Part shown: one piece after another, positions 11,147-53,700 of the stretch
Layout of the letters: the number at the start of each line of letters is the position of its first letter
How positions within the stretch are numbered: position 1 is the first letter of the stretch
Assembly (NCBI GenBank): GCA_965263355.1
Contig: CBDHHL010000032.1
Span: forward strand, 928,001 to 992,000
Source of the DNA: Leptolyngbyaceae cyanobacterium
GTDB lineage: Bacteria; Cyanobacteriota; Cyanobacteriia; Phormidesmidales; Phormidesmidaceae
Length of the DNA stretch: 64,000 bases
Direction: 5' to 3'
Translations under genes and position numbers: made by a program
Notes under the pieces: model-generated
Told to the model about the DNA's origin: nothing
Seen by the model: the letters and a program-made list of their open reading frames with translations, nothing else
The model's database searches: none

Positions 11147-13239
11147 ATGCCCCATCCCCCCGAGCATGAATTTGAAATCGAAAATTCCTCTGTGCAAGAC
11201 ACCAACATTGCCCAAGGCGATCATGCTCACACCCTCCAGGGCAATCAAAACAAAGCCAATGTCGGCAACCATAATGTCCAGGTAGATGGCCAGGGGCACA
11301 CCGTCATCGTCCAAACAGCCCCCACCGAAAAACGCCCCCACTTGGAGCACATCCTGCTAGACGAAGTGGCCAACGAAGTCAGCTACCGACGGCAGCAGTC
11401 ATTACACAATCAGGTCTTTATCGAACTGGGTAAAACACAAGCCCCAGAGCAGATTCGTTGCCCATGGGCCATGGAAGTGAAAATAGGCAAACAAGCCCCG
11501 GAACCCATTCCCCATGGTCAGACCATCGCCGATGTATTTGAGCGGGATGACATTAAAGGAAAATTGCTCATCCTAGGTCAGCCAGGAGCAGGCAAAACCA
11601 CCACCCTGCTAGACCTGTCTAAAGCATTGTTAGAAAATGCCCAGCAAGACGCCACCAAACCTATTCCCGTTCTGTTTAACCTATCTAGCTGGCGGGATGA
11701 CAAACAAACCATTGCCCAATGGCTGGTAAACGAACTGCAAGAAAAATATCAGGTGCGCGAGGCCAAAGGGCAGGAACTACTAGAAGCTAAAAAGCTACTG
11801 CCCCTGCTAGACGGTTTAGATGAACTGGCAGCCCAGCGCCAGGAGGGTTGTGTAAAAGCTATTAACACCTGGCTGGGGTCAGACCTGGGTGTGGGCAAAG
11901 TAACTGTATGCAGCCGCATACATGAATATGAGACCTACAAAACGAAGCTAGCGCTCAATGGCGCAATTTGCCTACAGTCGCTAGAGAAAGCAGAAATAGA
12001 ACAATATTTGCAACGGACTGGCAAGACCAAACTCTGGCCCGTGATCAGTCAAGATAAAACTGTTTTGGACCTGGTGCAGGTGCCCCTATGGTTAAGCGTA
12101 TTGACCCTGGCGCAGGATGAACTAGATCTAGAAAAGTGGTCACGGTTAGAGACAGATAAAGAAAGGCTGACGCTGTTGCTAGATGCCTATGTGAGTTCGC
12201 GGCTGGCGGCACCGCTGAACGAGAAAAATTGTAAGTACTACAAACTGAGTAAAGTCCCTACAGCAAGGAAAACCCGTCATTGGCTGGTGTGGCTAGCCCA
12301 GAATATGGGTCAGGATGAGTTTTTAATTGAGCGTATGCAGCCTGAGTTGTTAAAGACCCGTGGTGAAAAGTGGCAGATGCGTCTGCTTGGATGGCTTATT
12401 TGGGTCTGATTTTGTCTGATTGGAGTTGTGAGTCTGATTGCGGAAGTGGCCTGGGTCTGGTTGATTTTCTGATTTGGGGTCTGAGTTTGGGTCTATTTTT
12501 AGGTCTGAATTGGGGTCTGATTTGGGGTCTGATTTGGGGTCTGATTAGGGGATTATTTGGGTCTGATTCAATTGATACTGTTGAGGTTTTGAAAATAAGT
12601 TTTTCGCGGCGCGAAAAATATTTTTCAACCAACTGATTGTGGGGTCTGATAGTGGGTCTGATTGGGGGGGGATTTTGGGTCTGGTTTTGGGGCTGCTTGA
12701 GGGTCTGATTGTGGGTCTGATTGGGGGTCTGATTTGGGGTCTGATTATTTTGGGGTCTGATTGTGGGTCTGATTGTGGGTCTGATTTTGGGTCTAGTCGA
12801 AGGCTTTAAAGCTGACATTCAAACTCAAGTACAGCCAAACCAGGGCATTCTCAACTCTGGTAGAAATACCCTATTTTTGTTGGTCATTTCTGTTCCCACT
12901 GCTCTTTTACTGTGGTTCGCTTTGCCCCCTATACTTGCCAGCACCAACCTATTAACCAGTGATGAAATTGCCACCACTACTGCATCAGGAATTGCCATTC
13001 TTTTTTGGAGCACATGGGCCTACGGCGGCGGCGACGCCTACCTCCGCCATTACGCCCTCCGCTTCGTCCTCGCCCGCTCCGGCAAAATCCCCTACCTCTA
13101 CGCCAACTTCCTCAACTATTGCACCGAGCGCCTACTGCTCCAGCGCGTCGGCGGTCGCTTTCGCTTTTTACACCGCACCCTGCAAGAACACTTTGCCACC
13201 ATGCCATTAGAAGATTATGGTCAGGGAATGAAACCTTAA
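11147..13239 (+). pseudogene. NACHT-domain NTPase with multi-TM GLIxG-repeat C-terminus, interrupted by frameshifts and stops (pseudogene, phase-variable gene or assembly error)
   Basis: Walker A GQPGAGKTT and Walker B LLDGLDEL in 11147..12409. Continuation lies in another frame (12370..12636; 12763..13239 ending LLQRVGGRFRFLHRTLQEHFA, typical of this family). Confidence 0.8.
12395..12795 (+). repeat. Degenerate 12-bp tandem repeats GGTCTGATTNNN (GLIx) in two blocks
   Basis: For example ggtctgatttgg tandem copies at about 12514-12549 and ggtctgattgtg copies at about 12754-12789. Confidence 0.85.
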
Positions 13240-35884: not shown

Positions 35885-37567
35885 ATGCCTTACTCTCCCC
35901 TGCAGTTATCCATGTTTGCCCTGGCGATGGCCAGCCAGTGGCAGCAGCGTGCCTTTACTCGCCAGCTGCCCCAAGCAAGCGCTATCCAAGCTCGGTTTTT
36001 GCAAAAATTACTTAAAGAGCAGCAGGGGACGGCCCTAGGACAAGCCTTAAAACTAGATCGCGTTAGTAGCATTGAGGAATTTCGCCAACAGGTTCCCAAA
36101 TGGAACTACGACGGCTATGCTCCATACTTTGAGCGAGCGGCAGCGGGAGAGCCAAACGTGGTATCACCATTCCCGGTACAGAGTTTTAACATGAGCAGCG
36201 GCTCCACCGGCAGCCGTAAACTCATTCCCATTACCAAACGGGTCAAGCAAACTCGAGCCTATGCCAATCAAATAGCCATGGGCTATGCCTTTGAACAATC
36301 TCGTACCCAGGGGGGTAGCATCGGTCAACTATTGCTGACAACCTCAATCGCACCTCTGGGCACAACGAAGGGCGGCATCACTTACGGCCACGTTAGTGGT
36401 AATCAGTTGCGCACCACACCATCGTTTGCATTCAAACAGCTATTTGCTCAGCCCTATGACGCCATGCTGGTGAATGATACTGCCGCCCGCAACTATGTTT
36501 GTTTGCTGTTTGGTCTACAACAGCGATGGCTGACCTACATAGGTGCTAATTTTCCGCTGATCATGCTACAGCTATGCACTTACCTGGAAAAATTTGGCCC
36601 TGACTTAGTCAACGATATTGAACGGGGTAACATTTCCCAAGATATTTTTCTAGAACCAGAGCTGCGCCAATCATTACAACAACAACTATCGCCCCACCCT
36701 CAACGGGCCAAAGAACTGCAAGCTGTACTAGCTGACCATGGTCGGCTGTTACCTCGCTATGTGTGGCCAAATTTGGCATTTTTAATTACTGCCCGAGGCG
36801 GTCCGTCAGATTTTTATTTTGAACGTTTTAATGAGTATTTTGGGAATACCCCCATTTTTGGCGGTACCTATGCTGCGTCAGAAGCTGTCTTTGGGAGCTA
36901 CTGTCAGCTCAATGCCGACGGAGCTATTTTGGCATTAAAAACAAACTTCTTTGAGTTTGTGGCCCCCGATCAGTGGGAACAGGATAATCCTAAAACCTTA
37001 CTGCCCCATCAGTTGGAAATCGGCGAATATTATCGTGTATTAATCACTAACTATTCAGGATTTTGTCGGTATGATATTGGCGATATCTTACAAGTCATAG
37101 GCAAACGCCACGGTGTTCCTATAATTGTTTTTCGCTACCGTCGGGGGGGAACTCTCTCAGCGATTTCAGAAAAAACGACTGAGTATCATGTCACTCAGGT
37201 CATGGCTGCCTTGCAAGGAAACTTACCCATTGAGGATTTTTGTGTCACTCTCTCAGAATCTCTTATCGATCCCTATTATGTGCTCAACATCGAACTTGCA
37301 GGCAACAATAAACTATCTGATCCAAAACAATTTTTAGCCGCGTTTGATCACCATATGCAACAGACCAATGAGTCCTATGGGTTCAAGCGTCAGAAAAATG
37401 ATATTACCCGTCCCCAACTCAATCTTTTAGCGCCGGGCAGCTTTAAGCAGCTGCGGCAGCAAAGGCTGAAACCAGGAATTTCGGATGATGTTCAAGTGAA
37501 ACTAGCTCATATCAGTTGCGATCGCACGCTCCTGGACAGCATCACCATCATCCAACAAATTCGTTAA
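35885..37567 (+). CDS. GH3 family acyl-adenylate/amido synthetase
   Basis: SSGSTG..KLIP, YAASE and RYDIGD. Confidence 0.9.
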   Translation: MPYSPLQLSMFALAMASQWQQRAFTRQLPQASAIQARFLQKLLKEQQGTALGQALKLDRVSSIEEFRQQVPKWNYDGYAPYFERAAAGEPNVVSPFPVQSFNMSSGSTGSRKLIPITKRVKQTRAYANQIAMGYAFEQSRTQGGSIGQLLLTTSIAPLGTTKGGITYGHVSGNQLRTTPSFAFKQLFAQPYDAMLVNDTAARNYVCLLFGLQQRWLTYIGANFPLIMLQLCTYLEKFGPDLVNDIERGNISQDIFLEPELRQSLQQQLSPHPQRAKELQAVLADHGRLLPRYVWPNLAFLITARGGPSDFYFERFNEYFGNTPIFGGTYAASEAVFGSYCQLNADGAILALKTNFFEFVAPDQWEQDNPKTLLPHQLEIGEYYRVLITNYSGFCRYDIGDILQVIGKRHGVPIIVFRYRRGGTLSAISEKTTEYHVTQVMAALQGNLPIEDFCVTLSESLIDPYYVLNIELAGNNKLSDPKQFLAAFDHHMQQTNESYGFKRQKNDITRPQLNLLAPGSFKQLRQQRLKPGISDDVQVKLAHISCDRTLLDSITIIQQIR

Positions 37568-39318
37568 AACGGCGTGTATTGGATGGAAAAATGAATCCCA
37601 CTGTCCTGCAACCCCTCATCATCCGTATCTAAATCCACCAGGGGAATGCCCCAATCCAAACGGGCAGAAAAATTGTCACTCTGTTGCCAGAACAATCCGA
37701 ACCCTGTTCCGACCAAAGTATCTGGACCAGGGGAACTACCATCATCATTCCAAACAGTACCTACGTCTATAAACGGCGTAACCTGCAATACACCATCTAG
37801 CTCCGGAACCCTGGCAATGGGCCAACGCAACTCCGCCGATAACAACGCCCCATTATCACGCCGTAACGCATCTTGTCGATAACCACGAACACTTTGCCCC
37901 CCGCCCAGGCTAAATTCCTCTTGGGGAAGTAAATCATCGGTAGTGAGCTGCACGTCCCCCCGCAAGAGAAACAATCGATCTGGTTTACCCAATAGTTTGA
38001 TCCACTGCCCTTGACCACGCCAGGAAAAGAACCGGCTATCCGGGGCGTCATCATTGATGGTGGCACCGAGTAAATCCACCCCCACGTTGAACTGCGATCG
38101 CAATGCCAATACATGACGCTGACTGCGCTGCGTCCACTCTTGAAAAAACCGTACGGCACTTGTGCGCGTACGACCATTTTCATCGGCACCAGGGGATAGG
38201 GGAAATGGCCCTATATCGTCTAGACCTAAACGGGTTTGACTGGTTTGATGGGATAGGGTAAGACCCAGAGCCGCGTCCTGGGTAGGCGTTTCAATCAAAG
38301 GATGACGATAACCCAGCTCATAGTAAGCACTGTCAGAGGAAATATCGAGCACCGAAAACGCAGAATTAATCACCCGGCTATCGGCGTAACCAGCTGCTAG
38401 ACGCAACGTATCGTTATTAGGACTGACTGGCACAGTGTAGCTAAAGTCCACACCATCACTGCCGTCAGTATGCTTATAATCCAGCGTAACTCGATCACCT
38501 ATACCAAACAGGTTACCTTCATCCACCCCAAGACTGACCTGGGTGCCGCCAATATTAGGCGATCGATTATTGGCCAAACTTGTATTAACTGCAAACGAGT
38601 CCGCCTCAACCACATCAATGACTAGCAAACTCGTCCCTGGCTGGACTCCGGCTTGTAAATCGGCAGATACCGTTTCTATTAATGGATTTAATTGCAATCG
38701 CTGCAGACCAGCCAAAAGTGTATCTACGTTAAGAGGAGGCTGGGCCCCTAATCCCACGCGACTACGAATATAGTCTTTATCTAGACGCCGGGTACCTCTA
38801 ACAACAATATCCTCTAACCGCCCTTCTACTACCTGAATAACGACAGTATTATCAACAACAGTCTGAGGCGGGATCAATGCTCCAGAGGTTAGATAGCCAG
38901 CTTGCACGTACCGATCGGTAATGGCCGAGCGCAACGCTAAAAGCTCATTAAAACTAAGCTGTCGATTACGATATTGATCCAGTAATTCTGCTAAATCCTC
39001 TTCATCGAAAATGGTGCTACCCATAATCTCGATATTTTCCACATAAAACTTAGCCTCCCCTTCTCCCAATCCCTCATCTGGAGGGACCGGTTCACCAGGA
39101 GAAAGAAGTTCATCCGGAGAAGGTAAGGATGGAGGTAAAGGCTCATCCGGTAAGGGGATCTCTGGCAGCGTCTCAGGCGGAATCGGTGATGTTTGAGCCA
39201 CGAGGGCACTTGCAGACGTCTGCACCATGGCCGGATAAACCAGTAAACAGCCGCACTGCCCTAGACCAAATAATATTTTTGTCAACAAAAATGAATAGTA
39301 TTTGTTTCTTAATACCAT
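37564..39318 (-). CDS. TpsB (ShlB/FhaC/HecB) outer-membrane transporter
   Basis: POTRA Y...GY.TS.A.IPPQ, VRGY motif (SVRGYRQD) and a beta-barrel end with terminal F. Confidence 0.92.
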   Translation of the reverse strand: MVLRNKYYSFLLTKILFGLGQCGCLLVYPAMVQTSASALVAQTSPIPPETLPEIPLPDEPLPPSLPSPDELLSPGEPVPPDEGLGEGEAKFYVENIEIMGSTIFDEEDLAELLDQYRNRQLSFNELLALRSAITDRYVQAGYLTSGALIPPQTVVDNTVVIQVVEGRLEDIVVRGTRRLDKDYIRSRVGLGAQPPLNVDTLLAGLQRLQLNPLIETVSADLQAGVQPGTSLLVIDVVEADSFAVNTSLANNRSPNIGGTQVSLGVDEGNLFGIGDRVTLDYKHTDGSDGVDFSYTVPVSPNNDTLRLAAGYADSRVINSAFSVLDISSDSAYYELGYRHPLIETPTQDAALGLTLSHQTSQTRLGLDDIGPFPLSPGADENGRTRTSAVRFFQEWTQRSQRHVLALRSQFNVGVDLLGATINDDAPDSRFFSWRGQGQWIKLLGKPDRLFLLRGDVQLTTDDLLPQEEFSLGGGQSVRGYRQDALRRDNGALLSAELRWPIARVPELDGVLQVTPFIDVGTVWNDDGSSPGPDTLVGTGFGLFWQQSDNFSARLDWGIPLVDLDTDDEGLQDSGIHFSIQYTPF

Positions 39319-39512
39319 AATCCTATTAAACTGCTATGCGGCCACGGTAGAAACGACTAGCTGTCTCAGGATGCCCCGTTTATATTGAAGTATTTAAATT
39401 TTTCAGCAGTATTGATGACGCGGTCTAGGATACCAGATGACACGATACTGGTTACATTTAGTTCAAGTAACATTAATATCGCCTACAAACTCCCTCAATC
39501 TGAGCTATTCGG

Positions 39513-40913
39513 CTAAAACGTTACAGACTGAATCGGCAATGTTAGGGTGAAGCAGGTTCCCTGCCCTAAGGTGGACGCTACATCAATAGAGCCACTATGC
39601 TTATCGACTACAATCTGCCGCACAATAGCTAACCCTAATCCCGTTCCCCGACCAACCTCTTTGGTCGTAAATAAATGATCAAAAATGCGTGGTTTGACGG
39701 CCTCATCAATGCCTGCACCATTATCCTCAATCTTGATCACAATACATTTATCATCTGCTGCTAAACCAGTGCTGACAGTTATTAGGTTTGATCGAGTCTT
39801 AGGAACTTCACAATTCGCTAGTTGGCTAATATCATCTAGCGTATCAATGGCATTTGCCAACAGATTCATAAAAACCTGGTTCAGTTGACCGGCAAAGCAT
39901 TCAATCTCTGGAATATCCTGGTAGTACTTTTTAACCTCGATTTCTGGTCTATTTTCATTGGCCTTGAGGCGATGCCTTAAAATCAACAAGGTACTATTAA
40001 GACCGTCATGCACATCAAACGATACCTTGTGTTCTTCATCTGCCCGTGAAAATGTGCGAAGACTATCACTAATATTGTGAATACGTTCCATACCTGTGGC
40101 CCAGGAAGACAAAAGTTTTTCTAAGTCTTGGCTTAAAAAATCCAGCTCAATCGATTCAATCCGCTCTTGAATAGCTTGCCCTGGGTCTGGAAATGTCTTT
40201 TGGTACAGTTCGATTAACCCTAACAGCTCCTGAATATATTCTCGGAGTGGCTCTAAGTTACCCTGCAAAAAACTAATGGGGTTATTAAGCTCATGGGCTA
40301 CACCTGCCACCAAATTCCCCAATGCCGACATTTTTTCATTTTGGACTAGCTGCAACTGAGCCTGCTGCAGTTTTTTTAGAGAATCTGATAACTCAGCCGT
40401 ACGTTGCTCAACCCTATGTTCAAGGTCTTGGGCTAATTGGTGGAGCCGAGATTCTGCCACAGTTTTTTCAGCAATCTCCTGGGTTAACAGTTCATTCTTT
40501 TCTTCTAACGCTTGAGTAAGAAATTTCAGGTGCAAATGAAGTTTGACACGCGCGATGACTTCTTTTTGCTGAAAGGGTTTAGTGATGTAGTCTACGGCCC
40601 CCATCTCTAATCCTTGCACCTTGTACTTAGAATCTGAAAGGGCCGTCATAAAAATGATGGGTATCGCCTGGGTCTCAGTATTGGCTTTTAGCCGTTGACA
40701 GGTTTCGAAACCATCAATTCCAGGCATCATCACATCCAACAAAATAAGATTAGGCTGCGCATATTTAGCCTGTTCAATCGCAGATACTCCATCGGTAGCC
40801 ACCAGCATTGTCCAATCATTGCCTTTAAGGGCATCAGACAGCACCTTTAAGTTAGTGGGCTTATCGTCCACTAACAATATCCGCACTGGCTGATCAAAGG
40901 AGCTGCTGGTCAT
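39513..40913 (-). CDS. Cytoplasmic REC-histidine kinase
   Basis: [24 protein letters not shown] box and G boxes. Confidence 0.93.
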
Positions 40914-43711
40914 AGGGATTTTCTAAGTGATACATGAGCCTGTAACAGCTGCTTGATTTTTGCAATCTGAAAATTTGAAGCCAGTGTTTGCAATGTATTA
41001 ATCAACTGTTGTGACTGAGCATCTGTCACCACCAGTGTCTTTAGCTTAGTTTCGATGTCCTGAATATTCCCCATCATCGCCCAGTGGTAAAGCTCATCCA
41101 AGATGGTATCAGGGATTAAAACAGGTGTATCCATCTTTAAATTGATGGGTGAACTTGGTTCAATCTGAGAATTATTCAAATCACTCTCATCGTATAGCCA
41201 CTCAAGCGCAAGCAATGTTTCCAAGGTTTCTGTTAGAGTTTTTAAATCAATGGGTTTAGGCAAAAACGTATTCGCACCAGCCGCTAAACTGCGTTGGCGA
41301 TCCGTTTCAAAAACACTGGCACTAATCACAATTACGGGAATATCTTGAAGTCCTTTGATCTGCCTTAACTGTTGAAGTAAATCAACTCCATTGAGTGTAG
41401 GCATAACCAAATCCGTAATAATCAGGTCAGGATATTGCTGCTTAATTAACTCTAAACCAGTTAAGCCATTGTCAGCACTATAGACATGGAATCCGATAGA
41501 ACCCAAAAAATCCAACAGCAGTTTAGAATCTTCTGAACTATCATCAATGACTAAAATGTTTGGAGTTTTTCCTTTAATACCAATAATTGTTCTGGCTGAG
41601 TCAATAAGGTGACTGCGGTCACCATACTCCAGCACAGGAATTTCCAAATCCATCCAAAACAGACTCCCCTCCCCTGGCATGCTTTGTACCTGAAGCTGGC
41701 TCCCCATTAACGTGACAATTTGTTGACTAATGGCTAGCCCCAAACCTGTTCCCTCTGACTTACGCTGACCATTGCCAACTTGCTCAAATGGTTTGAAAAT
41801 CTGTTCCAATTGGTCTGAAGTTATACCAATTCCCGTATCCTCAACCGATATACGCAGCCGACAATATTGGATTAACTGAGATGAGCCATCAGAAGAAGCG
41901 TTATCTAACCGCTTTACACTAAATGCAACACTCCCTTGATCGGTAAATTTTATAGCGTTACTAATCAGGTTAATCAAGACTTGACGAAAGCGTTTTTCAT
42001 CAATCTTCACTATCTGAGGTAGCGGGTAATCTAGGTTTAGAGTAAAGGTAAGCTCTTTTGCACGGGCACGAATCTGACACATCTCAGCCACACCCGATAG
42101 CAATGGCTCTAGATAAACCTCTTTAGGAAACAGTTCAAGCTTACGGGCCTCAATTTTGGCAAGGTCCAAAATATCATTAATCAAGGTGAGCAGATGGTTA
42201 CCACATTGATGAATAATCGAAATTTTATTGTGCTCTTCGTCTGTTAACGTTCGTGAGTTTTGCAAAATTTGGGTATATCCCAAAATGCCATTGAGGGGTG
42301 TACGTAGCTCATGGCTCATATTGGCTAAAAACTCGCTTTTGGCTTGGTTAGCATTATCAGCAGTCTGTTTAGCTTGGGCAAGTTCTTGCGTACGCTCTTT
42401 CACCTTTGTTTCTAGGGTGAGCGCATAATCTAAAAGCCGTTGATGAGAAAACTTCAACTGCTGATTTGTGAGCTGTAACCGATGTTTTTTAAACCGACTA
42501 GTGGTTGCGATCGCACTCCCCACTAAAGCCACCATCGGTGCCACGACCGGCAACACCCACCCCATTAGAAAACTGATATAACTTCCCCCTAGAAGCAATA
42601 TAGCACTCCCCCCCGTGACGACACTCGGCATTAAAAACCACCGCCGCTGCCGATTTTCTTGATGGTTATAGGTTTCTAAAAACCAATTTCCCAATGTCCC
42701 CCCAAACGCCCACAGAGTAATCCACAGCCACTGATATTCCCATGTCCAGCCCCGCAATAGAGGCCGTTTCCCCAGAGCACTGTCCAATAGATAGCTGGTA
42801 ATGTTGGCATGAATTAGCACACCAGCCATACGCTCATCTGCAGGCCCAAAGCCACCACTGTAGGGAGTGGCAAAAAAGTCCTTAGTACTGGCAGCAATGG
42901 AACCAATGTAGACAATGCGATCGCGCATCAAGCCCTCAGGAATCTTACCTGCCAGTACATCCGTAATTGAAATTTGTTGATATTGATGACTAGGACCATG
43001 CCACCCCATCAACACTTGATAGCCACCTAACTCATGGTTAGGGTAGCCAGCCGCCCGTCGCACCATCGGTAAAAAATCAGCCTGCCCCAACCGAAACTGC
43101 TGCCGGTCAAGGTTAACAGATTCAAGGACAATGCCATCCTGTTCTAGATAATTAAGGGCTAATTGGGTGCCCAACCCAGTTTTAATGACAGATGTTCGTT
43201 TATCTTCAGCAACGACTAAAATACGCCGAATGGTTTGATCCTTATCTGATACAAAATCAGCAACGGCAACCTGGCCAGTCTCTGCCAAGATTGGTGGAGG
43301 AGCTACCTGTCTACCAAAAACCTTCTCCACACCAATCAGTTGAGGTGTTGTCTCAAAAACATCCAGCAGTTGCCGATGCCCTGGCTCTTCCGGTAAATCT
43401 CGATACAGATCTAACCCAATCACCCGAGGCTGCTGAGCCCGAATATTAATTAACACCTGAGCCAAGGTTTTATCCGTAATGGGCCAGTGTCCCAACGCCT
43501 GAATATCCGGCTCATCCACCGTGACCACTACCACCCGATTATCAACAGGTGCTAACGCTCTACGACGATAAAACTCATCGCGGATAGCCCATTCCAACAA
43601 GTTTAACAGACCGAACCCATTGACAAAAATCACAATAGCGGACACACCAGGTGCCACAGACCAAATGGGCTTAGATTGCCGAATAAATTGTCTGAGGGCA
43701 ACTAAAAACAC
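40910..43711 (-). CDS. CHASE2-domain hybrid sensor kinase (CHASE2-3TM-HisKA-HATPase-REC)
   Basis: [28 protein letters not shown] and [10 protein letters not shown]; 4-bp overlap with the downstream REC-HK. Confidence 0.93.
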
Positions 43712-43863
43712 GTACTGATTAATCTATCCGTCAAAATCACACTCCATCCCAATGTTATGAAGTATTCGAGACTTTTAGTCTAAATCAGTAAATGATCAAT
43801 CTCCATGTCTGTTTCACTAAAGGACTTTAACTTTAGTTCGTAACAAATAATGCGCGTGAGTCA

Positions 43864-44883
43864 TCAAAGGAAAGAATGCTCTAACAAAGAATCTAACCCA
43901 ACTGAGTCAAGGAACTCAGTCCAATTAGCAATCGTATCAACCTGAGTTTGAGGATTAAGTTGTAGCTCAGCCAACTGTTCAGCTGCATCGTACCAGATGC
44001 CAGCTTGGGCTAACACCTTAGCTTTCGCCAAACCAGTAAGCCCATCCACTTGAACAACAGAAGCTACATCAACACGCTTAATCCAAGCAGTCACATAGGG
44101 GCTGCTTGGTGTAATGTATTGGCCCGTTTGCAACGTTACAAACCATTGATAATATTTGCCAACAGCTAATTCTGGAGCATTCTCGTGTAGAGTAATCCTC
44201 AAAATACCATCCGCTCCATCCAAAGGAACGACCTGACGATAAATGACTGATCGAGTCTCATCTTTTAGGCTAAAAATCGCAGTATGCGCTTTAGTTTCAG
44301 GCAAATAAGCCATGATTGTAGGTCGCGCTGAAACAGTCAACCCATAAAGGTTGACTGGAGTCACAGGCATCATAGCTGTTACATAATTAGGCGCAAACCC
44401 ATGAACCGCAACACTCCCCTCTTCTGAGGAGAACAGAGCACTATCTTCAACACGACTTTCTCGAGAGGCACCGCTCACTGTACTCTGAGGGGCTGCATTG
44501 TCTGGAGGCGGGGTAAACCCAATTCGAGAGGCACCACTAGTTGCACTATCAGGCGCAGAATTGTCTGGAGGTGGAATAAACCCAATTCGAGAGGCACCAC
44601 CAGTTGCATTATCAGGCGCAGAATTGCCTGGAGGCGGAATAAACCCAATTCGAGAGGCACCACCAGTTGCACTATCAGGCGCAGAATTGTCTGGAGGCGG
44701 AATAAACCTGATACTGCTGCGGGAAGCCCCGCCATCACCACGACTTGGAGCAGTGTTGTCCACCGGAGGAATAAAAGTCACTGCTAAGGTCGGCGCTAGA
44801 GTAGTCAACCAGAGCCCTAAGCTTATATATGTCAGCCTGACTAGATTACTCAACAAGCTATACTTCATCACCATACGCCTCAC
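43864..44883 (-). CDS. Exported DUF928 domain protein with N-terminal peptide repeats
   Basis: Signal peptide; GLTVSARPT..AYLP, L.VGK.YQW and GIWYDA. Confidence 0.88.
   Translation of the reverse strand: MRRMVMKYSLLSNLVRLTYISLGLWLTTLAPTLAVTFIPPVDNTAPSRGDGGASRSSIRFIPPPDNSAPDSATGGASRIGFIPPPGNSAPDNATGGASRIGFIPPPDNSAPDSATSGASRIGFTPPPDNAAPQSTVSGASRESRVEDSALFSSEEGSVAVHGFAPNYVTAMMPVTPVNLYGLTVSARPTIMAYLPETKAHTAIFSLKDETRSVIYRQVVPLDGADGILRITLHENAPELAVGKYYQWFVTLQTGQYITPSSPYVTAWIKRVDVASVVQVDGLTGLAKAKVLAQAGIWYDAAEQLAELQLNPQTQVDTIANWTEFLDSVGLDSLLEHSFL
44461..44781 (-). repeat. Five in-frame 63-bp tandem repeats (21 aa, xxFxPPxxNxAPxxxxxGASR)
   Basis: Unit positions 44521, 44584 and 44647 are exactly 63 bp apart. 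Confidence 0.92.
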
Positions 44884-45270
44884 TTAACCCTAGGTAAGAT
44901 TGCTGAAGTAATCGATACTAAAAATGCAAACGTGCAGATAACCCTTTAACACAGACCTATGCGCCTTACTCTTCCTAGTAAACTTTGTCTCAATTCAAAC
45001 CTCATTTTTTTTTACCGACTTTCTACTAAAAACCATAGTTACGTAGAAATAAGAGAGCCTTATTTAGGATAAATCCTAGTCAATTTTAATCAAAAGCAAG
45101 GACATAATCTTTATGATTATTGAGCATTTTATAGAGCTAATTAGCCCCAAAAAATTTATCGAATACTTATTTTTTTAGTTTTGCGAAAGTTCACCCAAAG
45201 TCTTTTGTAAAAATTCATGAAACGAGTTTACGCAAATTCACGCAAAGTCTCTTTTTTTAGTTACTTCCGC

Positions 45271-47844
45271 TTAGAGCCAGTTACCAATTAACACATAGGG
45301 CGACCAGAAAAAGGGCTCAGCAAAGTCTTTGTTTTTTAACAACTTCAGCTGTGCCTGACGTAGCGCTTCTGCCTTAGTCATCCTAGACTGTCCTAGATTT
45401 TGATAAAAATCGATCATCAGCTGCTTAGCCACTTCATCCCTGACAGACCATAGAGTCGCTAGAGTAGAACGGGCACCCGAGCGAACCGCTAATCCAGCTA
45501 ACCCCAGTGTGGCCCGATCATCCCCTGCAGCTGTTTCACAGGCACTGAGGGTTAACAGCTCAATGGCCTGACTACGCTCCGTTTCCCTACGTTTCAGCAG
45601 CTCTGATAACTCATTGATATTGATAGCCCCATCCCAAGTTAGAAAAAAGGTCTGACTAAAATCAGAACTAAACTGCCCATGGCTTGCTAAGTGGAGCACA
45701 TTGACTTGACGATCGGTCAAACTTTGACGTAGAGACTGACGCGTAAACTGCTGATCTAATAACTGATGTGAAGAAAACAGTTTACTGATATTGCTTACCT
45801 CTTCTTTAACCGCAGGCAATGCACTGAAACGACCGCGGGCCTGACTAATGCCAGCCACAATAGCATTATTGTCTTGGTTCTCTAAAGCATTGGCCGGTAA
45901 TAGCTGTAACCCTGGCGATAGGGCAACAGCATATTTTTCAATCAGGTATTGCTGGCCGTCGTGAAGAGCCGACATCGGTAAATTGCGAAGCAGACCGTCT
46001 AACACAAATACTAGAGTTTGCTCTGGCTTCAACAGACCGGCCTCTTCCGCTGGACGGATTAACCAGTTGTATAGAGTCTGGGCATAGCGTAATTGATCCT
46101 GACGATCGGTGGATGGATGCAGATTAGTTAGAAATGAGCGCAGCGTAGTTTCAAGTTGAGCATATTCGATCTTAGTTTCGTAGGCTTGCAACTGACCAGG
46201 TTGCGAATAAATCACTGCTAGCCGATCATCTAGAATGATGGCGTAAACCACCATGGCGTTGGCATCAATTTGATCAACTTTGTCAGTCTCAAGGTCTATA
46301 CAAGCCTCTCGAAAGAAATTGTCTAATTCTGCTATTTGTAGATTTTCTAAAATCACACGCGCTTTCTGTAAGGAGTTCTGACTCCCCTCTCGTAAAAGCT
46401 GTGAAACCAGATCTCGGTAAACCGGTTCTACCTGCTCTCGGTAGGAAAATTGAATGTCCTGGTTGATTGCTATCAGATCTCCCCGCAGACTTTGTAGAGC
46501 ATCCACCGCCTTCGTGTAAGCATCGATAGACGACTGTAATTCTCCCTGCTGTTCAAATAGCTGTCCCAGCTGCCAGGCTGACTGGGAAATGATATCTGCT
46601 GATTGAATAGATTCGGCTAGGAAAAGGGATTGTTCAGTTAAGTTAAGGGCATCGGTTAGTTGTTTATTCTGACGATATAGCCTTCCTAACTGATAGAGAG
46701 AGTAAGCCTCGGCTCGCCAATCTTTCAGTGCTTTGGCCGCTCTCACACCATTGGCTAATAGCTGACTAATTTGAGGGGTTGACAGAGGCTGAAGATCGTG
46801 GGGAAGTCGAGACAAATTGTGGGCCAGGTTAACGGTACCGTATACGGTCGTACGGCTGGCTGACATTGTAGTGAGCTGCTTTTGAATTTGCGCAGTAAGT
46901 TGAGAAATATCTGCTGTCTCTTCAAGATCGACATAGGTGGAAAGTTTATCTAAACGAGCCTGGAGCTGATCAAGCGGGATGAGCGCAGCGTCCTCCGCAG
47001 CTTGAAAGTAATCCAGCGCCTTTTGAGGTGAATCGACCTCAGCAGCCAACTTACCAATGCTCAAGTAGATAGAACTTAGTTCGGTTTGAGCGTCTAAATT
47101 ACGGGCTAGCTCAAGGCTTTGGGCCAGTACATTGTAACTATCACGGGGAGAACCGATCAGCTGTAGCGTTTGCCCTAAACTGCGCAATGCGGCAATTTTC
47201 AGCTGGCTATCGGGCAGCGTATTTAACTGCTGTGTAATTATTTGCAGTTGATCCTTGGCCCGTCGATAAAAACCTAGGGTTTGTAATGCCTGGGTCTGGT
47301 TAATTCGCACCCCCAAAGCACCCGCTGTGTCATCGGCCTGGAGATAGTAGATCTCTGCTTCTTGCCAAAGCTCTAGGGCGGTTTGAGCCTGACCACCGTG
47401 GTTCAGTGTAAGGCTAGCCTGAGTATTAAGGGTTTGAGCCCACAAAATCGGCTCTATATGGGGGGCCGTTTCCAGTAATGTTCGACTCATTTCAACGGCT
47501 TGCTGAGCCTGATCCCAGTTGTTGAGCGCTTGCTGGGCAGAGGCGATACCATTCCAGCCCATAACCTGACGAGGCAGATCTTCTTGTTGAGACGCTTGCT
47601 GAATGGCAATTTGCCACTGTTCAATTGCAGCCGCAAACTGTCCTGCGTGGTAATGGGTGCGTCCGACTGCCAATAGATCGCTGGCTGATATGGCCTGAAC
47701 TGTTGTAGCTGGTCGCTCTGGTGTTTCAGTAATTGCTGGAACGGGTAAGGTAGGGTTAAATGCGATCGCAACCACCACTAGAAACCCTAATACCCCAAAC
47801 CCCAACCAACGTAATCTTTTTATTCGGAAAGACAAATACGCCAT
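45271..47844 (-). CDS. TPR-CHAT (caspase/separase-like) protease with N-terminal signal/TM segment
   Basis: TPR repeats; catalytic His in LHLASHGQF and Cys in LSACETA; terminal PFFWSPYVLIGNW. Confidence 0.93.
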   Translation of the reverse strand: MAYLSFRIKRLRWLGFGVLGFLVVVAIAFNPTLPVPAITETPERPATTVQAISASDLLAVGRTHYHAGQFAAAIEQWQIAIQQASQQEDLPRQVMGWNGIASAQQALNNWDQAQQAVEMSRTLLETAPHIEPILWAQTLNTQASLTLNHGGQAQTALELWQEAEIYYLQADDTAGALGVRINQTQALQTLGFYRRAKDQLQIITQQLNTLPDSQLKIAALRSLGQTLQLIGSPRDSYNVLAQSLELARNLDAQTELSSIYLSIGKLAAEVDSPQKALDYFQAAEDAALIPLDQLQARLDKLSTYVDLEETADISQLTAQIQKQLTTMSASRTTVYGTVNLAHNLSRLPHDLQPLSTPQISQLLANGVRAAKALKDWRAEAYSLYQLGRLYRQNKQLTDALNLTEQSLFLAESIQSADIISQSAWQLGQLFEQQGELQSSIDAYTKAVDALQSLRGDLIAINQDIQFSYREQVEPVYRDLVSQLLREGSQNSLQKARVILENLQIAELDNFFREACIDLETDKVDQIDANAMVVYAIILDDRLAVIYSQPGQLQAYETKIEYAQLETTLRSFLTNLHPSTDRQDQLRYAQTLYNWLIRPAEEAGLLKPEQTLVFVLDGLLRNLPMSALHDGQQYLIEKYAVALSPGLQLLPANALENQDNNAIVAGISQARGRFSALPAVKEEVSNISKLFSSHQLLDQQFTRQSLRQSLTDRQVNVLHLASHGQFSSDFSQTFFLTWDGAININELSELLKRRETERSQAIELLTLSACETAAGDDRATLGLAGLAVRSGARSTLATLWSVRDEVAKQLMIDFYQNLGQSRMTKAEALRQAQLKLLKNKDFAEPFFWSPYVLIGNWL

Positions 47845-48063
47845 AGTCTGACTTTTGCCCTATGCAACAACAAACGCCCTAACCATTGGTACCATCAAGC
47901 AGACTGCAATACCCTTAACATCAACATCACCCTATAAGTATGTCAACAAGGGACAGCAAACGTCATCAGGAACATGCATCAGTTTGCCCTCATCTAAAGC
48001 TGCATTAATTTTTTTGGGCAGCGTCAAGACTCAGCCTCTCTAAAACCAACTATTCTTTCCTTG

Positions 48064-50721
48064 CTAATTAAAATCCATAGAAGCATCAGCACAGGTAGTT
48101 TTGGAAACCGATGAAACAGCTGCCGCATTCGTTGCAACTAGCTCAACTTGCCCCAGGTCATTGTGATACCAGATATTAGCTTCCTCTAATGTCGCATCAG
48201 TTGACACAACAGAGAATTCAATCTGGGAATCGTTGAGAAAAGAAGTGAGGTCGCGGGTGTCAGTCCAGATGCGATCGCGATGCACCCCCTCAGTCGGGGC
48301 CGCAGGCACTCCACCACGCCCTGTGACAACAAACTGATTACGCCCGCCCGTACAGCCCTGAACAACCTGGTTGCTGGCATCTGCTAAATTTTCAGGCAGT
48401 TCTACCAGTCCTGAATCTGGCTGTACATTAAAGTCATTAATGGCAACCGTACCACTGAGACCAAACTTAGAACTTGCGGTAATGTCGTTATCGGGGGTGA
48501 GTTGTTCGCGGAACATCAATCCAAACAGCCCCTGGGTCGTAATATCAATGTTGCCACCACTGCCAAAAACCGCATTGGCAACAATGTCACTATTCTCTAA
48601 ACCTAGAATGACTGGAGCAACTAAAACAATATTACCTCCAGCAGCCATGTCTGTAGCACTCGTCACAATTTCGCTATTTTGACGCAACAATATCAGCTGA
48701 GTAGCATTGATATTGATATTGCCCTCAATACCCGCTGTTACTTGTGCCTGCAAAACACCATCGTTGAGCACAAGATTGTCTGCAGAGATTGTCAAATTGC
48801 CTGCATTGCCCTCATTCAAACTACTGACCGACACTTGCCCCCCATCGCGAATGGTAATTTGATCGCCATTGAGCCTAATGGCACCTGCATTAAAGCTAGT
48901 AGTTGAGCTAGACGTGATTGCACTATGAAATAATGCATCATCCGATTGTCCAGCAATGTCAATTTCGCTGGCACGAATGTTAATGCTGCCTGCTGCTCCA
49001 AAACCCTCAGTCGATGCCGTAATCTGTCCTCCACGGGAAATCTGCAACTGATCAGCTTCGATATCTAGCGATCCTCCATTACCGGTGGAATCTATATTCA
49101 CACTGGCAACGATACCACTCACCGTATCGGACGCGTCCACAACAGCATCAGCTACCTCAATCAGGTCAGCCTGGATAGAAAGATTGCCCCCATCACCACT
49201 GCCAACAGTATTAACGGCTATTTTGCCCCCTTGAGTAATCGTTAACCGGGGTGTTGTCAGGCTCAGGTCTCCCGCATTTCCAGTAGACTCAAATTCAGCA
49301 CTCGAAAATATACCGCTGGACAAAAGATCCCCAAAAACAACTCCAGTACCTTGAATATCAACGGCATCTGTCGCCGTAATCGTAAACGCCCCTGAGCTAC
49401 CCCCACCAAAGGTACCAGTGCCGATTTGGCTACCCTCCCGCAGTACTAAACGCTCAACATTTAGAATAAAATCCCCACCATCACCTGCATCGGGGCCTTC
49501 TCCAAAGGTCGTCGCTTGAATAAGTGTTGGCTTTTGAGCCAAAAGTTGGTTGGCAGTAATGGTCAGATCCCCTCCTTGACCAGGTCCAAACGTGTCTGCT
49601 GCAATGACAGTCGCGAACTCATTGGAGATCCCCAATAGAGAAATGTCATCCGCATTGATTGTCAGGTCTCCTCCTGCCCCCGTTCCCTCCGCTTCGGCAA
49701 CAATAAAGGCTGTATTTGTCAACGTCAACAGATCTGTCTCAATTAATAGGCTATTGCCCTGTCCTGCAGCTAGGGGACTCACATCAATAACAACCGGGGG
49801 AAAGGTATCATCTCCAATCAGCTCCAACTTGTCAGTAGCGCGAATAGTTAGAGTTTCACCATCAGAGTCTCCCAGGTTAAATGCGAATAGGGCCGCATCG
49901 TCGGTCAGGGTAATCGAGCGACCCTGCAATTGAAATCGACCCCCTCCATCACCACTAACATCAACCATCGCCCCTTGAGTCAGCAGAATATCTTGAAAAT
50001 CAGTAGCATTGTCATAGGTAATCAAAAACGTGTTGGGATCGATGGTGACTTGGCTATCTGCCGCCACACCACCCAGCACAGTATAGCCAGACTCTACGAT
50101 GATGTTACTTCCGAAAAATTGAAGATTACCACCTAACAAACCCAGAGATTCTCCAGTATTGAGAATTAACTCACTTTGATTAAGGGTAATCTCATTGGCC
50201 GTATTACCAAACTGCAAACCGACAGGGGTACTAACGCTTAACAGAGGAGCACTGTTCGAATTACGACTACTAAAACTCAGTTCATCGTTAAATAAAACAC
50301 TCTCGGCTGTACTGGCAAAGAATGATCCTGGCAACAACAAACTTGCATTAGCTCCAAAGGTAATACCGTTGGGATTGATCAGAAATAAATCCGGATTGTT
50401 CCCACCGGTTAGCTCTAATTGTCCATCGATCAAAGAGAGATTTGCCCCCGTTACTCGACCAATAACGACATCCACAGCACTCTGAGTGCCATCTAGCTGA
50501 AACAGCACATCGGCTGTACTGGGTGAAAATTCTTGAAAACTGTGGAACAATGTTGTCAACTGCTGGCTACCGCCCGTGACGGTGAAGGGGCCATCGCCTG
50601 CAATGGTGGTACCCACTGTTCCATCCGCGACTACATTCTGAGCATAGCCAGGCAAAGCCAATGCCAAAATGCCGATTACCCCCAGCCACCCTATGGGCCA
50701 AGCAAATCGTCTATTGCTCAT
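48064..50721 (-). CDS. TpsA / filamentous haemagglutinin N-terminal domain protein (copy 2)
   Basis: Signal peptide, LFHSFQEFS, NPNGITFG and GxGGxLxIxA beta-helix repeats. Confidence 0.92.
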   Translation of the reverse strand: MSNRRFAWPIGWLGVIGILALALPGYAQNVVADGTVGTTIAGDGPFTVTGGSQQLTTLFHSFQEFSPSTADVLFQLDGTQSAVDVVIGRVTGANLSLIDGQLELTGGNNPDLFLINPNGITFGANASLLLPGSFFASTAESVLFNDELSFSSRNSNSAPLLSVSTPVGLQFGNTANEITLNQSELILNTGESLGLLGGNLQFFGSNIIVESGYTVLGGVAADSQVTIDPNTFLITYDNATDFQDILLTQGAMVDVSGDGGGRFQLQGRSITLTDDAALFAFNLGDSDGETLTIRATDKLELIGDDTFPPVVIDVSPLAAGQGNSLLIETDLLTLTNTAFIVAEAEGTGAGGDLTINADDISLLGISNEFATVIAADTFGPGQGGDLTITANQLLAQKPTLIQATTFGEGPDAGDGGDFILNVERLVLREGSQIGTGTFGGGSSGAFTITATDAVDIQGTGVVFGDLLSSGIFSSAEFESTGNAGDLSLTTPRLTITQGGKIAVNTVGSGDGGNLSIQADLIEVADAVVDASDTVSGIVASVNIDSTGNGGSLDIEADQLQISRGGQITASTEGFGAAGSINIRASEIDIAGQSDDALFHSAITSSSTTSFNAGAIRLNGDQITIRDGGQVSVSSLNEGNAGNLTISADNLVLNDGVLQAQVTAGIEGNININATQLILLRQNSEIVTSATDMAAGGNIVLVAPVILGLENSDIVANAVFGSGGNIDITTQGLFGLMFREQLTPDNDITASSKFGLSGTVAINDFNVQPDSGLVELPENLADASNQVVQGCTGGRNQFVVTGRGGVPAAPTEGVHRDRIWTDTRDLTSFLNDSQIEFSVVSTDATLEEANIWYHNDLGQVELVATNAAAVSSVSKTTCADASMDFN

Positions 50722-53700
50722 ATCTACAGGCCATTACAACACAGCATTTTATCTCAGGCCCATCTACCTCACTTAGTTAGAAAGCTCAGGGTAAGGGATG
50801 AGTTTGCACCCATATGGGTTCTAGAGTAGCAGAGATAGCGATGCGATCGCACCAAAGCAATGCTGGCAATTTATCAAGTTTCTTGATATTGATATCTCCA
50901 CCTCCTGCTCAATCATGTAATCCTCATAAAGAAAATGCTGACTTGGAGGAAATGGCACAGGTAGCGCTGGCAAATGATGAAACAGTTGCATTGGCTGAAA
51001 TCAACTCAATTTGTCCTAGAGCATTGGTATACCAGACATTAGCTTCTTCTAAGATCGCATCAGTGGGCAAAACAGAAACTTTAGTTTGAGAATTGTTGAG
51101 AAAAGGAGTGAGGTCGCGGGTGTCAGTCCAGATGAGATCGCGACGCACCCCCTCAGTCGGGGCCACAGGCACTCCACCACGCCCTGTGACAACAAACTGA
51201 TTACGCCCGCCCGTACAGCCCTGAACAACCTGGTTACTGGCATCTGCTAAATTTTCAGGCAGTTCTACCAGTCCTGAATCTGGCTGTACATCAAAGTCAT
51301 TAATGGCAACCGTACCACTAAGACCAAACTTAGAACTTGCGGTAATGTCGTTATCGGGGGTGAGTTGTTCACGGAACACCAACCCAAACAGCCCCTGGGT
51401 CGTAATATCAATATTGCCACCACTGCCAAAAACCGCATTAGCAACAATGTCGCTGTTCTCTAAACCAACAATTACCGGAGCCGTTAAGGTAATATTCCCT
51501 CCTGTTGCCATACCAGTGGCACTGGTCACAATTTGACTATTCTGACGCAGCAATATCACTTCAGTTGCCGTAACTTCAAGATTTCCTTCACTACCGCCAG
51601 TTACCTGAGCTTGAAGAGTTCCATTGTTCAGAGAGAGTCTCTCAGTGGAAATCGATAAGTTACCAGCAGCGCCACCGTTGAGGCTATTGACTGACACAAC
51701 CCCCTGATCACGAATCGTAATCTGATTACCAATAAGATTAACCGAACCAGCATCGGCACTGGCATCGGCATTCGTTGTCGCACCAGACATAATTCCACTG
51801 CTAAACAGACCATCCGTAGATTGTCCCGAGACTTCAATTTCATCGGCACGAATCGTTACAGTCCCCGCATTACCGGCTCCATCCGTAGAGGCCGTAATTT
51901 GTCCACCATTATAAACACTTAAACGATTTGCCTCAATATCTAACGACCCACCATTGCCAGTTGAACCAGTGACAGCATTGGCCACTAAACCACTGACCGC
52001 ATCAACAAAATCTACAATTGGATCGGCCACTTCTATTTCATCGGCTCGAATAGTAATATTCCCTCCATTACCCTCTGCAAGGGTATTGACGGCAACTTTT
52101 CCTCCTGCCACAACGCTTAATCGAGGTGTGGTAATACTCAAGTTGCCAGCGTTTCCAGTCGAACCAGGTTCAGCACTGGAAAATAAACCACTGGATATAA
52201 CACCACCAATAAATGTATTAAATCCAGTAATTTCCACAAAATCTGTCGCCACCACCACTAAATCACCAGCGTTGCCGCCCGCCCCCTCAAACGGACCTGT
52301 TCCTACTTGGGCTCCATCACGTAGAACTAACGACCCAATATTAAATCGTAAATCACTACCATTTCCACTATCAAGTCCTATGCCCAAAACATCACCAGTC
52401 ACCCGCGCCGTACCCTGAGCGATTAAACGCTCAGCAGTAATTTCGATCCCGCCTCCTTGTCCGCTATCATAAGTATTTGCAGCAAGAACAGTTGCAGCTA
52501 TATTTCCATCGGGATCTCCCAACAGCAAAACATCGTTTGCACTGATAGTTATCCCCCCGCTAGCCCCTTGAGCAAGGGTATCGGTACTGACATAAGCTGA
52601 TTGACTAAGCAATAACTGATCTGCCTCAATCAGTAACTGATTACCTCGCCCCTCACCATAAACATCAACGAAGATGAAACTGGTATCGGGTGCCGGCATA
52701 TTTGTTCCAATCACCTCTAATTTTTCAGACGCTTGAATAGTCACTGTTTCACCATCGGCTGCCCCCAGATTAGAGGCTTCTAAAGCCGCATTATCAAGTA
52801 CCCTCACATTACGTCCCTGGACTTGGAATCTACCACCACCATCACCACTAACATCAGCATATGTTCCCTGGTCAAGGGTAACATCCTGAAAAGAAGTTGC
52901 ATTTGTGTAGTCCAACAAAAAAGTATCCGTCTCCAGAGCAACTTCACTTCCTGGGGCTACACTACCCAGAGATAACATTCCCGCAGGAGCGTTCAAGAAA
53001 CTGCCTGTAACCTGCAGCTCTCCCCCCAAGAACCCTAGAGACTCTCCTGGATTAACAACTAGGACTCCTTGATCAATATTAATCGGACTGGCAACAGCCC
53101 CAAACTGTAACCCTACTGGCACACTCACTGACAATAAAGGTGCACTCCCAGGATCGCGGCTGCTAAAACTCAGTCCATCATCGAATAAAACACTCTCCGC
53201 TGTACTGGCAAAAAATGATCCTGGCAACAACAAACTTGCATTAGCACCAAAAGTAATACCGTTGGGATTGATCAGAAATAAGTCTGGATTGTTTCCACCG
53301 GTTAACTCTAACTGCCCATCAATTAAAGAGAGATTTGCCCCCGTTACTCGACCAATAACGACATCCACAGCACTCTGAGTGCCATCTAGCTGAAACAGCA
53401 CATCGGCTGTACTGGGCGAAAATTCTTGAAAACTATGGAACAATGTTGTCAACTGCTGGCTACCGCCCGTGACGGTGAAGGGGCCATCGCCTGCAATGGT
53501 GGTACCCACTGTTCCATCCGCGACTACATTCTGAGCATAGCCAGGCAAAGCCAATGCCAAAATGCCGATTACCCCCAGCCACCCTATGGGCCAAGCAAAT
53601 CGTCTATTGCTCATATCTACAGGCCATTACAACACAGCATTTTATCTCAGGCCCATCTACCTCACTTAGTTAGAAAGCTCAGGGTAAGGGATGAGTTTGC

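Follow-up and report, generated by a model that had tools for sequence, protein, structure and literature searches.

The window, i.e., the 64,000-nt stretch of DNA from a Leptolyngbyaceae cyanobacterium analysed here, harbours a series of minus-strand genes encoding, in this order, two TPS proteins, a TPR-CHAT protein, a DUF928 protein, a CHASE2 hybrid kinase, a REC kinase and an ShlB protein. The TPS-domain (haemagglutinin-like) secreted proteins are encoded at 48064–50721 (copy 1; Pfam TPS, E = 2.6e-34) and 50924–53614 (copy 2; E = 5e-37), the TPR-CHAT protease (857 aa, with a hydrophobic N-terminus; Pfam CHAT, E = 1.7e-60) at 45271–47844 and the DUF928 protein at 43864–44883 (334 aa from the ATG at 44868). 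The CHASE2-HisKA-HATPase-REC hybrid kinase (933 aa, 40910–43711; Pfam domains, membrane segments 16–43 and 364–405, CHASE2 domain at residues 44–325) is followed by the REC-HisKA-HATPase kinase (39513–40913), which has a 4-nt overlap with the stop of the CHASE2 kinase gene and is likely a downstream relay, and by an ShlB/FhaC-type outer-membrane transporter (37564–39318; Pfam ShlB and POTRA_2). A GH3-family acyl-adenylase gene on the plus strand (35885–37567) converges on the ShlB gene and overlaps its stop. An identical block of 135 nt of upstream and 179 nt of coding sequence is common to both TPS genes, past which their middle parts are ~45–60% alike before similarity returns near the end; we read the pair as recently duplicated or converted, the middle being variable. 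Elsewhere in the window, at 12452–12794, there are two tandem arrays with a 12-bp period (8.6 and 13.2 copies), which no single open frame of >150 codons spans together.

The Repeat Array of the Window DUF928 Protein

The DUF928 protein (PF06051, E = 1.6e-39, 136 bits versus a curated cut-off of 26) consists of a leader, five motif units, a linker and an Ig-like/helical core. By inspection, the leader (44782–44868) is predicted to be an export signal, with a hydrophobic stretch at residues 15–33 in the hydropathy profile and an A-x-A end directly after which the units start. Residues 35–141 (44781–44461) translate into five 21-residue units, each ending in GASR: unit 1, the most divergent one, at 44719–44781, unit 2 at 44650–44712, set apart from unit 1 by two Ser residues (44713–44718), units 3 and 4 at 44587–44649 and 44524–44586, and unit 5, the final one ahead of the linker and core, at 44461–44523. 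This translation is identical to that in the preliminary description of the locus, which had placed five such units straight after the leader. At the DNA level, Tandem Repeats Finder reports a period of 63 bp with 3.9 copies, 89% matches and a score of 382; units 2–4 are 93–96% identical to one another, and unit 1 is 54–63% identical to the others. The Arg is followed by Ile at three of the five sites, the commonest residue here in the family being Gly (41–42%). Two or more GASR motifs arose in none of 20,000 shuffles of the stretch, which rules out chance as the source of the array. The number of five copies is that of the window assembly, as public contigs break within the array.

An export signal, as judged from hydropathy, followed by tandem conserved units, all delimited by one and the same candidate site, is the layout of a multi-copy precursor. 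The preliminary description had termed the protein a polyprotein precursor of peptides; this layout agrees with it, the five units likely constituting a multi-copy peptide precursor, from which release of the peptides is the conjectural step. A comparable arrangement is known from the yeast alpha-factor precursor, which carries tandem near-identical peptides behind a signal peptide, with variable spacers and copy number, and depends on dibasic sites for the subtilisin-like Kex2 and on a GPCR; the likeness lies in the tandem layout and is an analogy only. We also considered multi-core RiPP precursors (cyanobactin-, microviridin-like), for which tailoring enzymes are encoded beside a short leader-core precursor. 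The region 37564–53614 encodes ShlB, two kinases, DUF928, CHAT and two TPS proteins and no tailoring enzymes, and the DUF928 precursor ends in a folded domain, such that this class was rejected.

The Motif in the DUF928 Family

A DUF928 profile search yielded 7,202 representatives at 50% identity. The preliminary description had called for a survey of motif copy number in homologs and had considered that repeat number may vary between strains. In most DUF928 proteins the motif occurs once, and the window array is thus an amplified version of a family-wide motif; at least three units were found in 112 of 433 proteins, all 112 belonging to one clade of 149. Copy number does vary within two clusters at 90% identity, with 6, 7, 9, 9, 10 and 10 units in Coleofasciculus and 4, 6 and 7 units in Aerosakkonema; the PCC 7375 orthologue of the window protein has three. 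When units were anchored on F-x-P only (346 units in 82 proteins), Arg was found at position +18 in 95%, Gly at +15 in 96% and Pro at +9 in 97% of them, whereas the spacers between units vary. Values of pN/pS between units ranged from 0.27 to 0.50 in the 11 scorable of 13 genes (the other two gave one scorable unit each); by this measure, the units evolve under purifying selection. In AlphaFold models the repeats are disordered and the core is folded. Predicted disorder and freely varying copy number are what one would expect of a dispensable low-complexity linker expanded by slippage; we consider this scarcely credible in view of the family-wide occurrence of the motif, its fixed spacing, the purifying selection acting on it and its covariation with two neighbouring proteins (see below).

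Among locus proteins with one or two copies, 77 of 82 have a small-small-x-Arg sequence shortly before a Cys, and in 79 of 84 single-copy members the Cys just after the Arg is retained together with a Cys in the core. This co-retention would suit a tethered ligand, i.e., cleavage exposing a new N-terminus of the core as the signal, with the repeats merely providing extra cut sites. Conservation, however, is strong for the residues preceding the Arg and poor for those following it, the Cys pair is gone in 133 of the 149 members of the multi-copy clade (the core Cys being kept in 274 of 284 proteins outside the clade), and the residue with which CHASE2 covaries is the one preceding the cut, all of which renders a tethered ligand very improbable.

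The best fold match of the core is MtxA of magnetotactic bacteria, with which it shares an Ig-like plus TPR-like fold at 12–14% identity; where DUF928 has the disordered motif, MtxA carries a second N-terminal domain. Pfam MtxA models gave no match in the window DUF928 protein at E ≤ 0.001, PF06051 being the sole hit, and an Atlas row containing MtxA families scored 0.78, to be taken as a lead only. In four family members (P0112, P0113, P0138, P0180) the entire DUF928 domain is present twice in a row, in most cases with a motif for each copy, and four others (L043, L072, L093, P0247) have an additional N-terminal part ahead of the motif, which, judged by eye, we take to be LysM-like, TPR-like or peptidoglycan-binding-like.

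The Neighbouring CHAT Protease

The window CHAT protein combines its profile match with a caspase-like fold, matching Csx29, separase, DdvA and gingipain, and with an intact His722/Cys769 dyad, as befits a clan CD protease. The S1 pocket of this clan is described as being built from elements of α1, L3, L4 and L5 (PMC4357240). Candidate S1-element residues of the window protein are E682, A720 (45685–45687), D775, W799 and D803, placed by the AF2 model in α1 (E682), at the end of β3 (A720), in L4 (D775) and in L5 (W799–D803). The dyad together with E682, W799 and D803 is invariant in 43 aligned CHAT sequences and sits on α1, L3, L4 and L5. In MARTX-CPD, Gly89, two residues before His91, is reported to contact the P1 Leu (PMC4357240), and in separase D2070 engages the P1 Arg (PMC12609080); the window equivalent of the latter would be D803. 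A hydrophobic N-terminal stretch is present in 55 of 59 full-length CHAT proteins neighbouring DUF928 genes, and export of both CHAT and DUF928 is presumed.

The preliminary description had argued for cleavage after Arg by analogy with separase, metacaspases and gingipain R. A precedent among CHAT proteins is the cyanobacterial HetF, reported to cleave PatU3 after Arg117 (PMC9457339). Craspases, on the other hand, are described as cutting after Met or Leu (PMC11506125), and our profile alignments show Leu or Tyr at their position 720 and no Asp at 803. As CHAT proteases are not all Arg-specific, the analogy with separase and gingipain is insufficient by itself. Nor do the acidic and aromatic S1 residues of the window protein (E682, D775, W799, D803) prove Arg specificity by themselves, since E682, D775 and D803 are retained in CHAT proteins paired with a Leu-ended motif (Leu-type, see below). 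In the sequences compared, it is Ala720 that distinguishes Arg-type from Leu-type CHATs.

Covariation of Motif, Protease and Sensor

In two DUF928 paralogues of PCC 7375 the motif ends in Leu; this genome contains both types (L001; L031, L033). We assembled 182 distinct DUF928 proteins from targeted searches, which enriched the Leu set, and from wider regions; their motif ends in Arg in 144, in Leu in 37 and in neither in one case. Position 720 of the adjacent CHAT protein, two residues before the catalytic His and an S1 position, is Lys in 24/24 Leu loci and Ala in 47/47 Arg loci, tracking the terminal motif residue in 71/71 adjacent pairs. When CHAT genes within 7 kb that cover this residue were considered, Lys720 was found in 28/29 Leu loci and Ala720 in 61/62 Arg loci; the nearest CHAT of the Leu-type locus L151 has Ala720. 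The sensor changes as well. In the window CHASE2 protein, D105 (43397–43399) lies within the motif D101-x-Y-R-D105. Asp105 occurs in none of 32 adjacent CHASE2 proteins of Leu loci (21 have Tyr; 3 more loci are uncovered) and in 79 of 91 of Arg loci (2 more uncovered), the remaining 12 having Asn (10), Glu (1) or His (1), and position 103 is His in all 32 Leu-locus sensors.

In the DUF928, CHAT and CHASE2 trees alike, the Leu-type genes fall into one clade, so that the Arg-to-Leu switch is a single evolutionary event. The Arg-type locus L147, which has kept Ala720 and Asp105, is the sister of the Leu clade in the trees of CHAT and of DUF928 and falls into its sister group in that of CHASE2. 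Among 67 conserved CHAT columns kept by the sister, four change in the Leu clade (676, 677, 720 and 824), and three of these lie in S1 segments, which account for 18 of all 67 columns (P = 0.056, borderline). CHASE2 has 56 conserved columns, of which three differ in the Leu clade, 105 being the sole one kept by all three sister sequences. The joint change of the motif residue, CHAT 720 and CHASE2 105 on one branch is the new observation here. Loss of a basic motif residue accompanied by gain of a Lys in S1 and loss of an acid in the sensor would be expected if both proteins read this residue, and the covariation, albeit from one event, ties the motif residue to protease and sensor, with cleavage and binding as predictions. 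The proposal of the preliminary description that GASR is the CHAT cleavage site has gained the dyad, the S1 acids, the HetF precedent and the change at 720 with the Leu motif in its favour, while cleavage itself is still a matter of prediction.

The same three-way covariation could be explained if the tethered, intact motif docked on CHASE2 and fixed it in one state until CHAT cleavage removed the motif, the repeats then conferring avidity or setting a threshold of several cuts, rather than supplying additional agonist. The folded MtxA-like core would fit such a scheme: the gene that comes after mtxA encodes a CHASE2 cyclase (PMC4439547), and the core may therefore itself be a co-receptor. A single proximal cut, however, would remove a linear array, yet all units keep motif and Arg under selection, and we regard release by removal of a docked motif as rather unlikely, if the most serious competitor to agonist peptides.

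Gene Neighbourhood of DUF928

Nine orthologous loci were confirmed, a tenth, weak match having been left out; all are cyanobacterial (PCC 7375, Adonisia, Oculatella and others) and keep the order CHAT-DUF928-CHASE2, for CHASE2 wherever the contig reaches that far. In PCC 7375, CHASE2 is found within 5 kb in 14 of 15 DUF928 loci (chance ~3%) and a CHAT domain in 11 of 15 (chance ~7%). Loci with at least three units have an Ala720 CHAT within 3 kb in 14 of 15 cases. Considering long loci, CHASE2 lies within 1.5 kb of 116/164 DUF928 genes and exported-type CHAT within 5 kb of 72/164, which makes CHASE2 the tighter genomic partner. This difference bears on a pseudo-substrate function, in which the motif would hold CHAT off while CHASE2, sensing something else, would have changed by hitchhiking. 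Clan CD offers a precedent, as the gingipain prodomain is reported to insert an Arg into S1 and thereby to keep the enzyme off (PMC4357240), and the A720K change would fit too; the tighter linkage of DUF928 to CHASE2 and the exact coincidence of the loss of the CHASE2 acid with that of the Arg make it improbable all the same.

Of the 144 Arg-type DUF928 proteins, 84 lack an exported-type CHAT within 5 kb, and 36 lack both such a CHAT and a CHASE2 within 1.5 kb; processing would therefore often occur in trans. Five DUF928 loci lacking a nearby CHASE2 (L168, L176, L183, L185, L189) lie beside transglutaminase-like genes, two of them with ShlB and three with DUF928 pairs.

At eight loci (L028, L034, L035, L038, L084, L086, L093, L104), one protein of 1,266–1,873 aa combines TPS and CHAT domains, suggesting that TPS protein and protease may act together. 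About 70–105 residues from their C-terminus, TPS tails, those of the two window proteins (48064–50721, 50924–53614) included, carry a conserved motif in which Gly residues flank an Arg, possibly a second CHAT site or a docking motif. Such a tail, or the sensor itself, might be what CHAT cleaves if the DUF928 motif were a CHASE2 ligand that is left uncut. The many Arg-type DUF928 proteins without a nearby exported-type CHAT could be explained in this way, and, of 39 TPS-tail matches outside Lys720 loci, 36 carry a small-residue Arg motif; only two TPS tails come from Lys720 loci (one with Arg, one with Gln), too few for a test. With CHAT 720 following the DUF928 residue in every adjacent pair, we assign an uncut ligand a low probability.

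CHASE2 Sensors Next to DUF928

CHASE2 is described as a widespread bacterial sensor whose ligand is stated to be unknown (PMC10581220). The 18 DUF928-adjacent CHASE2 proteins that we checked differ in their outputs, among which are cytoplasmic CHAT, cyclase, GGDEF-EAL, Ser/Thr kinase and TIR. Fusions of CHASE2 were seen to cytoplasmic CHAT (L027, L028, L031, L034, L054, L062, L068, L081), TIR (L040, L050), Ser/Thr kinase (L052) and trypsin-cyclase (L086), outputs of a kind typical of defence or damage signalling. A CHASE2-DUF928 neighbourhood has been noted for a Nostoc strain in the part of the literature available. In the literature covered, which leaves out most subscription journals, we found neither a described function of DUF928 nor a report on DUF928 and CHAT together, and among the matches listed for CHASE2 since 2012 no title refers to a peptide ligand.

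Discussion

Our preferred reading is that the neighbouring CHAT protease cuts DUF928 after each Arg and that the freed peptides bind and activate CHASE2; we see the balance for and against it as about even. What it has in common with release by removal of a docked motif, namely cleavage at the Arg and reading of the motif by CHASE2, is probable. According to the preferred reading, DUF928 and CHAT would both be exported and meet outside the inner membrane, where TPR-CHAT would cut after the Arg of each GASR. Ala720 would leave room for the Arg in S1, and Lys720 would fill the acidic pocket and thereby admit Leu. The released 21–23-residue peptides would bind CHASE2 of the adjacent kinase via their C-terminal Arg, presumably held by Asp105, and binding would set off the CHASE2 hybrid kinase and the REC kinase, the latter relaying the output at a guess. 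For the window protein, the five predicted products have monoisotopic masses of 2113.06, 2299.12, 1994.98, 2055.99 and 2069.02. Several peptides per precursor may raise gain or yield. It is likewise a guess that the TPS/ShlB pair serves as an outer antenna switching the protease on.

Such a system would resemble, in its logic, the protease-released peptide signalling of plant metacaspases. For AtMC4-Propep1-Pep1 and AtMC9-GRIM REAPER-PRK5, a clan CD protease is described to free a receptor-kinase peptide from a disordered precursor at Arg (PMC13157962). At the window locus, as predicted from its sequence, the protease is a TPR-CHAT and the receptor would be a CHASE2 histidine kinase, precursor, protease and receptor being encoded side by side; the putative peptide is present in several copies, is situated on the N-terminal side of the cut and belongs to a protein with a folded core. 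HetF-PatU3 of Anabaena PCC 7120 provides a cyanobacterial CHAT cutting after Arg (R117/S118), but HetF destroys a cell-division inhibitor, the available text describing no peptide product or receptor (PMC9457339), while export is predicted for the window CHAT. DdvA of Myxococcus xanthus, a periplasmic TPR-CHAT in envelope signalling, shares the fold of the window CHAT and, in the profile alignment, the Ala two residues before the catalytic His; it differs in being an anti-sigma factor and in its proposed self-cutting, with substrate and signal given as unproven in the accessible text (PMC11506125). Among CHASE2 proteins, the cyclases CyaD1/D2/K of Sinorhizobium meliloti are reported to answer a protein signal via the outer-membrane barrel NsrA, and Dgc2 of Leptolyngbya boryana controls motility and biofilm, with its ligand stated as unknown; the available descriptions of these systems contain no DUF928, CHAT or peptide ligand.

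Extended to the family, the proposal would be that DUF928 motifs are the long-missing CHASE2 ligands in cyanobacteria, with TPS-activated CHAT freeing 20-mers, with kinase, cyclase, TIR or cytoplasmic CHAT outputs, and with Arg and Leu channels kept separate by matched pockets. We advance this wider scheme tentatively and think it somewhat more likely to fail than to hold. From the covariation, a ligand candidate and a candidate for the processing enzyme can be named, as can the residues to exchange (Arg/Leu, Ala720/Lys, Asp105/Tyr), and the proposal is therefore testable with synthetic peptides. The family comprises 7,202 DUF928 representatives at 50% identity, with 15 loci in the PCC 7375 genome. 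If true, the system would be a bacterial counterpart of plant damage-peptide signalling and would provide a substrate class for many exported TPR-CHAT proteases of filamentous cyanobacteria; repeat number would then act as a strain-variable gain control, possibly with cell-to-cell reach along filaments.
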